From NCBI RefSeq assembly GCF_003334305.1, contig NZ_QOWS01000025.1: 64,000 nt of DNA. The stretch is one strand, 5' to 3'. The DNA comes from Escherichia coli. GTDB taxonomy: Bacteria > Pseudomonadota > Gammaproteobacteria > Enterobacterales > Enterobacteriaceae. Shown here piece after piece: positions 3,837-38,226 of the stretch (its first letter is position 1; each line of letters opens with the position of its first letter). The notes under the pieces are model-generated. The model was not told the DNA's origin and did no database searches. It worked only from the letters and a program-made list of their open reading frames with translations. The translations under genes were made by a program, and so were the position numbers.

Positions 3837-6479
3837 TTACTGGTTTACTGAAATTGAAGTCGGAGGTTCCGTTGGCGTCACCCGCTGTGTCTGTTCCTGA
3901 ATCGCCGGTTTGACCGCCGGCGAAGTGATAGGTGCTACATTGCCTTTATGCTGGCATGGCAGTAACAAGCCGTTAAACAGATCGGCAGGCAGCGGGTCCG
4001 GCAGGTTGATATCGCAATGCGCAACACCACTCCAGAACACACTCATGTGTTCGCCAGGTTTCACCCCAGCCAGATAAACATTGCCGTCATCATCGACAAG
4101 GCCCACTGTCTGCTCGTTATCATTTTTTACTTCTGCGCCAAACGGAGGATGGCTGCCGTCTTGTAAACGCAGCACCGCCATCGCTTTTTGACCACTGATG
4201 ACGGCAAATTTGCGGTAGCCAATCGCCCCTTCAGTTAGCGTGGCTTGTACCACCGACTGGGTTGCTTCGGCGTTTTCCGGCAGTTTGTTGAGGTCGATAT
4301 ACGCCTGATTGCGGTAATAGTTATTGACGTCAGAAACGACGGCTTTACCAAACATATTGGTATAAACAGCAGCACCGTTACCTTCTACCGGAACATCGGC
4401 AACGCCATCGGCATCAATCAACAAGCGTGTCCCGCCCATATTCTGGGTACGGTGAAGTGCGCCACCGTGGGCAGTAAGCGTTGCGCCGCCCTGTAACGAC
4501 AAGCCCGCAGAGGTGTATTGCCCTTCATGGTAGTTCGCACTGAGGTCAACCTGCGCCAGCGAACCATCATGGCTGTAATAGCCGTCAACGCTGGTGTGTT
4601 TGTCACTGGTGCCGACGTTCAACTGATAGTGAGTCGCGTCATCGACACGGCTGAAATAACCGACCTGACTGCTGTCCGTCCCACTGCCATAGTTACCGTT
4701 ATAGCTAACGGTACTGTTGTCGCCCCACGGCATACTGAGCGAAATGTACATGCCTTTGTCGGCCTGGTTGTCATACTCGTAACGGTAGCCAGTCATCGAG
4801 ATGCTGACATTACGAATACTGCCCATATTGAAATAGTGCGAGAGCATGATGTTGTAGTTTGTCTGCTCCTCGCGATCCCAGTAGGTATGGCGGGTATAGT
4901 TGAGATAAACCGAAACACCCGCATCGCGGAAGTTCTGGTTATAAGTGGCGGTGTACATCTCTTTGTCGTTGCCCGTGCGTACCATTCCGCTGTCACTGGC
5001 ATCCAGATACTCGCTCATGGTCATAAAGTTCTCTTCCGAGAAGCGATATCCAGCAAAAGTAACGCGGCTGTTGAGCTGGTCAAAGTCTTTGGAATAACTC
5101 ACACGGAAGGAGTTACCGTCCAGCGAACCTTTGCCATAAGCGGTGTCTTTATCCAGTTTGGTGTGCGAGTGAGTAACATCAAACGCGACCGCGCCGAATG
5201 TAGACAAATCGCGACCGACGCCAAGCGCCGCAGACTGATAGTTTTCATCTCCCAGTGCGCCGCCATATAACGACCAGCCGTTAGCGATCCCCCAGGAAGC
5301 TTCAGCACCAGAAAAAAATTCACCCTCGACATGGTGTCCCCACTCTTGCGGACGGCCCATCATGATCTTATAGCGAACCTGACCTGGGCGAGTGAGGTAT
5401 GGCATCGAGGCGGTGCTGATGTCATATTCCTGCACCTGGCCGTTCTGTTCTTCAATGCGAATATGCAACGTACCGGAGACAGAATCACCAAGATCCTGAA
5501 TACGAAACGGTCCAGCCGGAACCTGCGTTTCGTAAATCACACGCCCCATCTGGCTGACGGTCACTTTTGCTGTGGTGTGTGCCACGCCGGAAATGTCTGG
5601 CGCGTAGCCGCGCAGATTGGGAGGCAACATTTGATCGTCAGTACTGACACTGCCACCAACATAGTTAAAACCATCAAAAATATCGGATCTGAGGTAATCC
5701 TCGCCCAGCGCCAGTTTGGCTTTTAATGATGGTAACGCCCGCCAGGCATAGTAGCGACTCCACTCCCATTTTTTTTGAGTTTCATCGCCGCTGAATTCAT
5801 CGTCATCATTACTGCGAGTATGTTGATAGTTAGTCTGCCAGTCAGCACGCATACGCCACGGCCCCAGGTTAACCCCGACCGTCCCGTTGCCGCTGATCTC
5901 GTTACTATCATCACCGCCATTTTCTTCGTGCCGGGTTTGTGCGTTGATGCTGTAGTCCGCGACGATCCCGGAGATGCCGTCATCCCAACGTGAAGGCGGA
6001 TCCCAGTCGGGATAAGTATATTCGAGGTAAGCCTGTGGCAGTGAAATGACTAATGCGGACTGGCTTAAATCAGCCTTAATTTCCATGCCTTCCAGTTGAC
6101 CGGATTTCAGGCATTTAGCATCGTGGCTCCATTGCAGATTTTTCGCCACGTCTTCTTTTAAACCAAACTGCGCTACCAGTTCCGGTGTCAGACAAGCATA
6201 GCTTTTGCTCGCGTCATCTTCACCAGCATACCAGTAAATATCGTACTCTTCCGCCAATGGCTGTTTATTTAGTTGAACCTGTAAATTGTATTTTCCGGGC
6301 TCAACATATCCCTGGCTGGAAAAACGCTTCAGATCAATTTTTGTGTCGCCTTTTAATTCCAGAAAACGGGAATCAAACTGAATGTCGTCTTCAGCCCAGA
6401 CACTGCTATAACTCCCTGACATTGCCAGCGCAATGCACCACGGAAGAATCCGTAATCGAAAAAGAGAATGGTCAGGCAT
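3837..6479 (-). CDS. yfcU: outer-membrane fimbrial usher YfcU, full length
   Basis: Uninterrupted 880-aa ORF with signal peptide, typical usher size; in K-12 this gene is a disrupted pseudogene. Confidence 0.9.
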   Translation of the reverse strand: MPDHSLFRLRILPWCIALAMSGSYSSVWAEDDIQFDSRFLELKGDTKIDLKRFSSQGYVEPGKYNLQVQLNKQPLAEEYDIYWYAGEDDASKSYACLTPELVAQFGLKEDVAKNLQWSHDAKCLKSGQLEGMEIKADLSQSALVISLPQAYLEYTYPDWDPPSRWDDGISGIVADYSINAQTRHEENGGDDSNEISGNGTVGVNLGPWRMRADWQTNYQHTRSNDDDEFSGDETQKKWEWSRYYAWRALPSLKAKLALGEDYLRSDIFDGFNYVGGSVSTDDQMLPPNLRGYAPDISGVAHTTAKVTVSQMGRVIYETQVPAGPFRIQDLGDSVSGTLHIRIEEQNGQVQEYDISTASMPYLTRPGQVRYKIMMGRPQEWGHHVEGEFFSGAEASWGIANGWSLYGGALGDENYQSAALGVGRDLSTFGAVAFDVTHSHTKLDKDTAYGKGSLDGNSFRVSYSKDFDQLNSRVTFAGYRFSEENFMTMSEYLDASDSGMVRTGNDKEMYTATYNQNFRDAGVSVYLNYTRHTYWDREEQTNYNIMLSHYFNMGSIRNVSISMTGYRYEYDNQADKGMYISLSMPWGDNSTVSYNGNYGSGTDSSQVGYFSRVDDATHYQLNVGTSDKHTSVDGYYSHDGSLAQVDLSANYHEGQYTSAGLSLQGGATLTAHGGALHRTQNMGGTRLLIDADGVADVPVEGNGAAVYTNMFGKAVVSDVNNYYRNQAYIDLNKLPENAEATQSVVQATLTEGAIGYRKFAVISGQKAMAVLRLQDGSHPPFGAEVKNDNEQTVGLVDDDGNVYLAGVKPGEHMSVFWSGVAHCDINLPDPLPADLFNGLLLPCQHKGNVAPITSPAVKPAIQEQTQRVTPTEPPTSISVNQ

Positions 6480-7124: not shown

Positions 7125-7752
7125 TATTTGTCCTTAAACTATAAATAATTAAAAATATAAACATTACAATACATTGATTCAGTCAATACCCAATGTTTAT
7201 ACCCAGCCATTGAATACGGCATGCGATCCAAAAAGAACAGGTCGTAGAAAATTGTATTCTTTGGTGTGGGGCCGCATAGTGATGTTTTCACCCCCCTGAT
7301 GCAATTTAATTTTACTAAAGAGTAAATGTAGATTTAATTAATATATTGACAGAAGAAAGGTTATCTTAAGGACATCCTTAAAAAATACGGAATAAGTATT
7401 TAGAAAAAATAGAAAGTATATCAATAATGAATATCAACAGCTTAAAAAACAAACAATGAACATATAATGCGATTGGCATTTATCCACTTTTGACAATATA
7501 ATATATAAACACTATAGCCAGAATTTAATCAAGTTTCAATTACATCCTGCCTGATTATTCAACTCTATTATCTGTATTAATAAATGACAATGAGTGTCAA
7601 ACAGACATTATTCATTTCAACATGTAACTTTGGGCAAAATCAAGATACGCGCAGAAGAATAATTTCCGAATGAATGTAGAAAGTGTTTTATTTATAGATA
7701 AGGAGAGTCTTCGATAGTAGTGAGGTTGACAGATATCCGCTGCCTGATGAGC

Positions 7753-7789
7753 AATTATGCCCAATGAATCTACCTCATTGGGCATAATT
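7753..7789 (-). terminator. stem-loop downstream of sixA (15-bp perfect stem, weak U-tract)
   Basis: AATTATGCCCAATGA-atctacc-TCATTGGGCATAATT begins about 9 nt after the sixA stop codon. Confidence 0.45.
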
Positions 7790-7798
7790 TGGAACACA

Positions 7799-8284
7799 TC
7801 AGATAGCTTTTGCCATCTTCAGATTACACGGGCTCATCTGCCAGTTGAATGTACCGTTTCCGCTTTCATCAAGCGTTACGCTGGCAATGGCCGAGGTGGT
7901 AAACATAGGCGGCGTTTCGCCCGGACATAACTCGGCAACCAGATACCCGACTAACGGTAAGTGAGAGATCACCAGTACCGAAGCAACACCTTCATTGGTC
8001 AACGCCTGCAAATAGGCACTGACCAGACCAACATCGCCGCAGGGCGTTAACTCCGGCAGAACTTCTGCACTGGAAGGCAGGTTCAGACAATCCCCCACTT
8101 CTTCCAGTGTTTGCTCGGCTCGCAGGAACGGGCTCACCAGAACGCGTTCGATTTCCACTTTTTGACCTTTCAGCCAGTTCGCCATCAGGCGAGATTCGTC
8201 ACAACCATTAGTGGTCAGAGGACGAACGGAATCACTGGCGGCATCGAGGGCTGCGTCGCCGTGACGCATGATAAAAACTTGCAT
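7799..8284 (-). CDS. sixA: phosphohistidine phosphatase SixA
   Basis: 161-aa ORF beginning MQVFIMRHGDA (histidine phosphatase RHG motif); conserved position downstream of fadJ. Confidence 0.95.
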   Translation of the reverse strand: MQVFIMRHGDAALDAASDSVRPLTTNGCDESRLMANWLKGQKVEIERVLVSPFLRAEQTLEEVGDCLNLPSSAEVLPELTPCGDVGLVSAYLQALTNEGVASVLVISHLPLVGYLVAELCPGETPPMFTTSAIASVTLDESGNGTFNWQMSPCNLKMAKAI

Positions 8285-8486
8285 ATTGCACCGCTTTTGT
8301 TAACCAGATTCGCCCGTTTTCTTTCATCTGAAACCAGAGAAAGAAAACGGTGGCCGGCATTGTGCCTTATCCATTCACCGAATGAAACGCTGTTTTTTAC
8401 CTCAATGGCGTAAGTATAGTCAATATGCGTTTACATTTTGACCAACACTCCGCCATTCAGCGCGGATTCATATAGCTTTGACCTTC

Positions 8487-37983: not shown

Positions 37984-38226
37984 GCGCCGGTGATTTACAA
38001 GTAAGGGTATGATTACGCTTTTTAAAGCGTACCATAAAACATAACATAATAAATGATTTGTGATGACACGGGATTATTGGGATTTACTTTGAGGAAGATA
38101 AAATGCGTGTTTATAGAACCGCGAGCGCCAAATAATTTTATGACCACAACCTGTCGTATTGTGGTCATAAAAAATTGTCGGCTGGAGGGAGTTAAATCCT
38201 TTACCTCAATATACTGCCTGTCAGCA

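Follow-up and report, generated by a model that had tools for sequence, protein, structure and literature searches.

The perfect 12-bp inverted repeat between fadJ and sixA specifies an RNA hairpin in the 5' leader of sixA that has been selected for its base pairing, lies at a fixed place between invariant flanks and is bracketed by RNA ends mapped in vivo. Our preferred reading, which we hold tentatively and with slightly less than even confidence, is that the hairpin, as a structural element resistant to nucleases, fixes the ends of RNAs and most likely stabilises the sixA mRNA, and that it is not a terminator. Exonuclease stalling and protection of the 5' end would then give rise to the RNA ends, and stabilisation of the mRNA would be the selected function.

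The window analysed here is a stretch of 64,000 nucleotides. Two features assign it to an Escherichia coli strain other than K-12: an intact open reading frame of 880 aa at 3837-6479 (minus strand), where MG1655 carries the yfcU pseudogene, and the divergence from MG1655 outside approximately 7700-12000. The fadJ-sixA spacer is identical to that of K-12. Between 7700 and 8700 the window and MG1655 differ at six positions, none of them in the fadJ-sixA intergenic region, so that a window position here equals the MG1655 coordinate minus 2,448,528; this offset fails past approximately window 12000. The features with which we are first concerned are as follows.

7799-8284, minus strand: coding sequence of sixA (phosphohistidine phosphatase), from the gene coordinates and the annotation in E. 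coli genomes.
8314-8350, minus strand: inverted repeat and RNA stem-loop, with the 5' arm at 8350-8339, the loop at 8338-8326 and the 3' arm at 8325-8314.
8304-8357, minus strand: extended closing helix predicted in the RNAalifold consensus, in which the invariant CCGG at 8357-8354 pairs with CUGG at 8307-8304 across a small internal loop.
8285-8311, minus strand: near-invariant tail from the hairpin to the sixA AUG, with a mean majority frequency of 0.97 and 74% invariant columns.

The repeat finder returned the arms as 8314-8325 (CCGTTTTCTTTC) and 8339-8350 (GAAAGAAAACGG), each of 12 nt, 100% complementary and 13 nt apart. Since sixA and fadJ (8487-10631) are both encoded on the minus strand, the repeat stands 30-66 nt 5' of the sixA ATG and 3' of fadJ on the same strand. 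The first-pass annotation had described a perfect 12-bp repeat with a 13-nt spacer in this position, and its description is borne out in each respect. Perfect inverted repeats of at least 12 bp with spacers of 3-20 nt occur at five loci in the window, compared with a mean of 0.05 in 100 dinucleotide shuffles. The 12-mer has no second mismatch-free copy anywhere in the window, and a 361-nt segment spanning the repeat gives one match per genome in all 5,426 of the 5,426 complete E. coli genomes, with sixA and fadJ annotated at the site. This single place per genome, together with the lack of a second copy in the window, excludes a repeat family or mobile element (REP/BIME, ERIC). Further perfect inverted repeats with arms of 12 bp or longer lie at window 14135-14163, 15682-15713 and 38136-38172. 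The first of these falls in the general region of a published fadL 3' end (MG1655 2462694), a placement that is approximate at this distance along the window, beyond the reach of the offset.

The sense-strand RNA folds into a hairpin of -22.3 kcal/mol (z = -4.2), and 0 of 200 shuffles fold as well. The stem-loop comprises 12 perfect pairs with 4 further pairs within the loop, and both arms have an unpaired probability of approximately 0 when the full leader is folded. The CCGG/CUGG pairs of the predicted closing helix never vary, so that covariation provides evidence neither for nor against it. In the tail that follows, there are a Shine-Dalgarno-like GGUG (8292-8289) and an ACA (8300-8298). 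The Shine-Dalgarno region reads CGGUG, the complement of the CACCG with which the stem begins at its 5' base.

Conservation of the locus was followed in a SixA-anchored scan with one genome per species, which gave the 80 closest Enterobacteriaceae loci among the matches listed. Four more distant genera were added through exact-protein look-ups, and the protein matches listed belong to the Enterobacteriaceae. In almost all of the 80 loci listed, fadJ lies upstream of sixA, and the spacer measures approximately 190-215 nt nearly throughout. Near-invariance extends over the promoter block, the leader's first 36 nt and the last 27 nt ahead of the AUG; the segment containing the repeat is hypervariable, in its length as well as its sequence. 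Over 85 sequences, the majority base has a mean frequency of 0.54 in the hairpin, 0.69 at third and 0.96 at second positions of sixA codons, and 0.97 in the tail at 8311-8285. The flanks are thus conserved to a degree equal to or above that of sixA second codon positions, and the hairpin lies below third positions. The invariant leader flanks around the hairpin read GGAUAAGGCACAAUGCC and UUCUGGUUAACAAAAG. The promoter and leader of sixA as a whole, 8285-8430 on the minus strand, are near-invariant among the 85 Enterobacteriaceae sequences, as seen for example in TTGACTATACTTACGCCATTGAGGTAAAAAACAGCGTTTCATTC, GGATAAGGCACAATGCC and TTCTGGTTAACAAAAGCGGTGCAATATG. The needs of a promoter and a ribosome-binding site do not obviously explain this invariance of the leader.

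A hairpin is present at the same place in 75 of the 75 distinct Enterobacteriaceae versions listed, with a length of 29-52 nt, a median dG of -18.1 and a median z of -3.8; in 93% of these versions z is below -2. The versions include a 29-nt hairpin in Kluyvera and one of -37 kcal/mol in Intestinirhabdus. In a MAFFT alignment, 87.8% of cells in the outer six pairs hold a standard pair; sliding the partner lowers this share to 24-59%. Double-sided changes are found in 53 cells, at four of the six outer pairs, a result reached by 0 of 500 shuffles; one such pair is C-G in 40 sequences, U-G in 19 and U-A in 15. An alignment-free count anchored on the flanks likewise yields the compensatory series C-G, U-G and U-A at pair 3 and G-C, G-U and A-U at pair 5. 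Within Escherichia, where the flanks are fully invariant, 97.2% of cells pair and two pairs are doubly changed, from U-A to C-G and from C-G to G-C. The base changes are therefore compensatory and preserve the helix, as in structured RNAs. We conclude that selection acts on the pairing and not on the sequence, which points to a function at the level of RNA and away from a protein operator.

The published maps of RNA ends place the hairpin within the sixA leader. The promoters and ends concerned are listed here.

8394-8423, minus strand: distal promoter P2, with a -35 element TTGACT at 8423-8418, an 18-nt spacer and a -10 element TAAAAA at 8399-8394.
8387-8388, minus strand: capped transcription start of sixA, from SMRT-Cappable-seq (PMC6131387, supplementary file 4).
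8359-8387, minus strand: candidate proximal promoter P1 for the 8352 end, proposed by sequence, with a -35 element TTTCAT at 8387-8382, a 17-nt spacer and a -10 element CACAAT at 8364-8359.
8351-8352, minus strand: 5' end of a sixA RNA, from TEX 5'RACE-seq (NC_000913.2 2454902, 5' UTR of 68 nt, 93 reads; PMC3415461, supplementary file 2).
8305-8307, minus strand: RNA 3' ends from Term-seq, at MG1655 2456833 (8305; LB OD 2.0) and 2456835 (8307; M63) (PMC7815308, supplementary files 1 and 3).

SMRT-Cappable-seq reported a monocistronic sixA unit with capped (5'-triphosphate) starts at MG1655 2456915/2456916, window 8387/8388, and fadIJ as a unit separate from sixA (PMC6131387). These starts lie 6-7 nt past the TAAAAA at 8399-8394, giving a leader of 103-104 nt in which the hairpin spans approximately +39 to +75. 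The P2 block is almost invariant across genera, and its placement fits the 8388/8387 start. A promoter consensus scan of 7700-8700 returned no match; the scan requires a -10 element with a final T, which TAAAAA lacks. Within the invariant block, CTATACTTA at 8411-8419 (minus strand) looks similar to an extended -10 element of the sigma-S type, with C at -13 ahead of TATACT. The start expected from it, at approximately 8406, is reported by none of the datasets examined.

The 5' end at 8352 is 2 nt 5' of the stem and 7 nt past the invariant CACAAT, and it represents either a second start of transcription or an end that arose by processing and resisted TEX. It was taken from a TEX-enriched library without a minus-TEX control (PMC3415461), in which a strong hairpin can shield a monophosphate end. 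The -10 element of the P1 candidate is followed by a GC-rich stretch, GCCGGC, and reads CACAAT or CAAAAT at all loci compared. The 8352 start is absent from the SMRT-Cappable-seq list, where the only sixA starts are 8388/8387; capping-based methods may under-sample structured 5' ends. With ends at both 8388/8387 and 8352, the suggestion of the earlier annotation that the repeat might belong to the sixA 5' UTR is confirmed.

The 3' ends at 8305 and 8307 fall 9 and 7 nt, respectively, past the perfect stem, within the CUGG of the predicted closing helix. Each was seen under one condition, 8305 in LB at OD 2.0 and 8307 in M63, and neither in LB at OD 0.4; they are catalogued as "upstream ORF" ends at -21 and -23 relative to sixA (PMC7815308). 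A table of transcripts processed by MazF (PMC5001579) contains the entry "sixA, 16", to which the ACA at 8298-8300, 16 nt 5' of the AUG, corresponds, and a MazF cut here followed by 3' trimming could be the source of the 8305/8307 ends.

Two further hairpins flank the one under study.

8401-8460, minus strand: imperfect hairpin after the fadJ stop codon, with 27-nt arms that are 70% complementary (repeat finder).
7753-7789, minus strand: 15-bp perfect inverted repeat, 10 nt past the sixA stop codon, with no U-tract and the tail GCUCAUCAGG.

The main fadJ-side 3' end, at MG1655 2456929 in LB at OD 0.4 (Term-seq, PMC7815308), maps to window 8401 (minus strand), exactly at the base of the 8401-8460 hairpin, which has no U-tract. 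The 3' arm of this hairpin is the invariant -35 region of P2, so that the 3' structure of fadJ and the sixA promoter overlap. At 8401 the Rho score is 1.02; the RNA coverage from which it was computed is 38 on the upstream side and 131 on the downstream side in the absence of the Rho inhibitor bicyclomycin (BCM), and 50 and 176, respectively, in its presence (PMC7815308). Coverage is thus 3.4-fold higher on the sixA side than on the fadJ side and insensitive to BCM, an indication that sixA is served by a promoter of its own. PMC7815308 gives no Rho termination region for either gene. Another dataset, as far as its operon table goes, treats operon 303, fadI-fadJ-sixA, as a read-through unit; for the unit as a whole it counts four log-phase starts, one RNase II stop and a single termination site, and it gives a 3' end downstream of sixA at 2456279, window 7751 (PMC10667835), which is presumably that termination site. 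This end lies 2 nt beyond the 7753-7789 repeat. The 3' arm of the same repeat contains a TEX-based yfcV "start" at approximately 7760, with a 642-nt UTR (PMC3415461), which looks like a hairpin-associated artefact or a processing site. Its location inside the sixA 3' hairpin lowers the trust to be placed in hairpin-located 5' ends of that TEX dataset.

Several classes of element were considered and set aside. A U-tract after the hairpin is absent in E. coli and in the 79 other Enterobacteriaceae listed, and likewise in the more distant genera; on the sense strand the stem is followed by GCGAAUCUGGUU in E. coli and by A/CUUCUGGUU in most other genera. A terminator scan of 7700-8700 gave no site. 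The locus has the stable GC-containing stem-loop of an intrinsic terminator and 3' ends 7-9 nt past the stem, a spacing that is unspecific because exonuclease stalling yields similar ends. With a U-tract in no genus examined, a canonical intrinsic terminator is ruled out, in keeping with the first-pass annotation, which had doubted a classic terminator on these grounds. An Rfam scan of 7700-8800 at E values up to 10 gave only chance matches to eukaryotic families. A riboswitch-type attenuator was rejected on this count and because the hypervariable arms have no conserved alternative partner. A leader-peptide attenuator was rejected because the frames at 8374-8324 (16 aa) and 8360-8232 (42 aa) differ in length and in frame between genera; the first ATG of the frames that cross the hairpin is absent in Atlantibacter and in one metagenomic relative. 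The 16-codon frame MDKAQCRPPFSFSGFR, at 8324-8374 on the minus strand, opens with an ATG common to most genera, passes along the 5' arm and closes with a UGA in the loop. Its translation would melt the hairpin; it lacks a Shine-Dalgarno sequence at a usable spacing, and the most distant genera do not keep it. An upstream stem, CAUUC-NNN-GAAUG at 8384-8372, has the appearance of a hairpin or operator in 75 sequences and was dropped because its right half is lost in the four distant genera. By-eye comparison with sigma-54, FadR, ArcA, NtrC, CRP and PurR sites turned up half-sites at most, and in most genera an extra C breaks the sigma-54-like GGCAC..GC spacing.

The repeat is transcribed within the sixA leader and folds into a stem-loop of 12-16 bp and about -22 kcal/mol, probably closed by the invariant CCGG/CUGG helix. 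In the mechanism that we propose, the hairpin would block 3'-to-5' exonucleases, so that leader fragments ending at 8305/8307 would accumulate. The shorter sixA RNA, with its start at 8352, has the hairpin at its very 5' edge. The base-paired 5' end of this RNA would hinder the 5'-end-dependent decay that proceeds through RppH and RNase E, and the sixA message would be stabilised independently of the fadIJ mRNA. A paired 5' end resists decay of this kind, in which RppH and the 5' sensor of RNase E take part. An RNA beginning at 8352 has at most two unpaired 5' nucleotides in E. coli and none in most other genera, because there the first two bases pair as C-G and A-U. The 5' end is 2 nt from the hairpin in the RNA from 8352, and the hairpin lies at approximately +39 in the RNA from the capped start at 8388/8387.

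As regards the 3' ends, stable stem-loops without U-tracts that carry precise steady-state 3' ends have been explained by PNPase and RNase II, which trim RNAs as far as the protective fold (Dar and Sorek 2018, PMC6061677). The sixA hairpin is of this description, being stable and U-less with a precise steady-state 3' end just downstream, and the two further hairpins of the locus (8401-8460 and 7753-7789) are likewise U-less with steady-state 3' ends at their bases. By analogy, these features point to nuclease stalling as the simpler source of the 8305/8307 ends. The Rho score of 1.02 at 8401 and, as far as the unit-level listing of PMC10667835 extends, the one RNase II stop within the fadI-fadJ-sixA unit are consistent with such a barrier. 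Two observations temper this account. The dependence of the 8305/8307 ends on growth conditions could reflect regulated termination and not passive decay, and hairpin-dependent termination, too, canonically leaves 7-9 nt between the stem and the 3' end. Stabilisation of the mRNA alone, moreover, leaves the near-invariant flanks unexplained.

In the main rival reading the hairpin would be a leaky, U-poor attenuator, at which part of the polymerases, whether from the sixA promoter or promoters or from fadIJ read-through, stop 7-9 nt past the stem and release a leader-only RNA of approximately 82-84 nt, tuning sixA by growth condition. The 3' ends do lie at the canonical 7 and 9 nt and appear only in LB at OD 2.0 and in M63. 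The base of the stem is GC-rich, the shape of the stem is kept while its sequence varies, as in terminators, and the A/CUUCUGGUU tail of most genera has 5 U in 9. In the dataset that gives fadI-fadJ-sixA as a read-through unit, on the evidence of its operon table (PMC10667835), the ratio of fadIJ to sixA would have to be set. Against this, no species compared has a U-tract and the terminator scan is negative; the same table gives one termination site, and the sole 3' end retrieved for the unit from that source is downstream of sixA (PMC10667835). Full-length sixA transcripts from 8388/8387 are on record (PMC6131387), and the hypervariable arms allow no conserved anti-terminator pairing, nor is there a conserved leader peptide. 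We consider attenuation of this kind unlikely. The narrower proposal of the first-pass annotation, that the repeat attenuates read-through from fadIJ into sixA, stands in so far as RNAs end after the repeat at 8305 and 8307; it is not borne out by the fadJ-side end at the 8401 hairpin, by the separate units or by the coverage that indicates a promoter belonging to sixA. Partial attenuation of fadIJ read-through may nevertheless occur, given the one dataset with a read-through unit.

The conservation of the flanks invites another interpretation, in which the hairpin is a structural spacer of a larger cis-regulatory leader, joining the 5' flank (GGAUAAGGCACAAUGCC(C)GGCC) to the 3' flank (UUCUGGUUAACAAAAGCGGUGCAAUAUG). 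The joined flanks would be bound by a protein or small RNA in control of sixA translation, or they would keep the anti-Shine-Dalgarno-like CACCG away from the GGUG ribosome-binding site. Flanks conserved at or above the level of second codon positions around a hairpin that is free in sequence and length are typical of peripheral stems in regulatory RNAs, the RNAalifold closing helix links the two flanks, and the CACCG of the stem base complements CGGUG. However, no ligand, protein or sRNA partner is known and Rfam gives no match; the candidate pairs outside the hairpin are all invariant and so beyond covariation testing; in some genera the stem base is CAUUG or CAUCAG, with weaker Shine-Dalgarno complementarity; and the conservation of the flanks may in part be that of the promoter (-10 CACAAT) and the ribosome-binding site. 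We rate this spacer as slightly less likely than attenuation. An independent sRNA of approximately 83 nt derived from the 5' UTR (8388 to 8305), with the hairpin as its terminator-like 3' end and a trans-acting conserved 5' part, would match the pattern of enterobacterial sRNAs in its conserved 5' body, covarying variable 3' hairpin, capped start and defined 3' ends, and 5' UTR-derived sRNAs are described in the Term-seq study (PMC7815308). It would, though, be an sRNA with no U-tail for Hfq binding; the searchable literature contains no northern blot, Hfq/ProQ association or target, and a search of it for sixA paired with sRNA, yfcX, ProQ or Hfq returned nothing relevant; and the region past the hairpin, equally invariant, is not explained by an RNA ending at 8305. 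Such an sRNA seems to us improbable. It is possible, although on the doubtful side, that one or other of two regulatory RNAs is present, the hairpin being either the variable peripheral stem of an undescribed cis-regulatory RNA of approximately 100 nt that is near-invariant across the Enterobacteriaceae or part of a 5' UTR sRNA of approximately 83 nt. A regulatory leader RNA, if real, would control the production of SixA by growth state, and it would explain both the leader-only RNAs in stationary phase or minimal medium and the unpaired flanks that are more conserved than coding positions. Lastly, a perfect DNA palindrome that adjoins promoter elements might be the operator of a dimeric transcription factor, a cruciform or a functionless chance palindrome. 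Operators conserve sequence, whereas this one would be hypervariable with only its pairing kept, and the chance expectation is 0.05 per window; an element of this sort is very improbable indeed.

SixA dephosphorylates histidine phosphotransfer proteins, namely the HPt domain of ArcB and NPr of the nitrogen phosphotransferase system. The papers found contain no description of how the SixA level is set, and the hairpin offers a testable handle on its control. Should it prove to be a nuclease block and nothing else, as in the reading that we prefer, it would be one more case of a common device and would show how the sixA mRNA is uncoupled from that of fadIJ; should the whole leader be regulatory, it would constitute a new control point in two-component and phosphotransferase signalling. 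There is also a lesson for genome-wide maps, where hairpin-associated ends can be read as starts or terminators though they are possibly nuclease stops. What is already known is that the sixA 3' ends stand, uncharacterised, in a public catalogue (PMC7815308) and that hairpins of this class, exonuclease-protective or 5' stabilising, exist. More unusual than the hairpin, to judge from the aligned sequences, is the leader around it, with its unpaired parts conserved above second codon positions.

The sixA hairpin may be compared with several known systems. It resembles the stem-loops of Dar and Sorek (PMC6061677) in being stable and U-less with precise Term-seq 3' ends just downstream. Those elements are found at the 3' ends of genes with Rho termination farther on, whereas the sixA hairpin is in a 5' leader, 30 nt before the start codon; no Rho-dependent region is reported at sixA, and dependence on nucleases would here follow by analogy with that class. 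The 5' UTR-derived RNAs ChiZ and IspZ (Adams et al. 2021, PMC7815308) appear in the same catalogue as the sixA 3' ends, although the sixA entries are known there from 3'-end mapping alone. With intrinsic terminators and attenuators the hairpin shares a GC-rich base, compensatory variation of the stem and 3' ends 7-9 nt downstream; unlike them, it has no U-tract, upstream A-tract partner, anti-terminator or conserved leader peptide. Like REP/BIME elements it is an intergenic palindrome able to block exonucleases, but it is single-copy and has no REP consensus. Emory, Bouvet and Belasco reportedly described, in 1992, 5'-terminal stem-loops of the ompA type that stabilise E. coli mRNAs. The sixA hairpin differs from these with respect to the capped start at 8388/8387, which puts it at approximately +39, and is like them with respect to the mapped 5' end at 8352, from which it is separated by 0-2 nt, its structure having been kept and its sequence left free.
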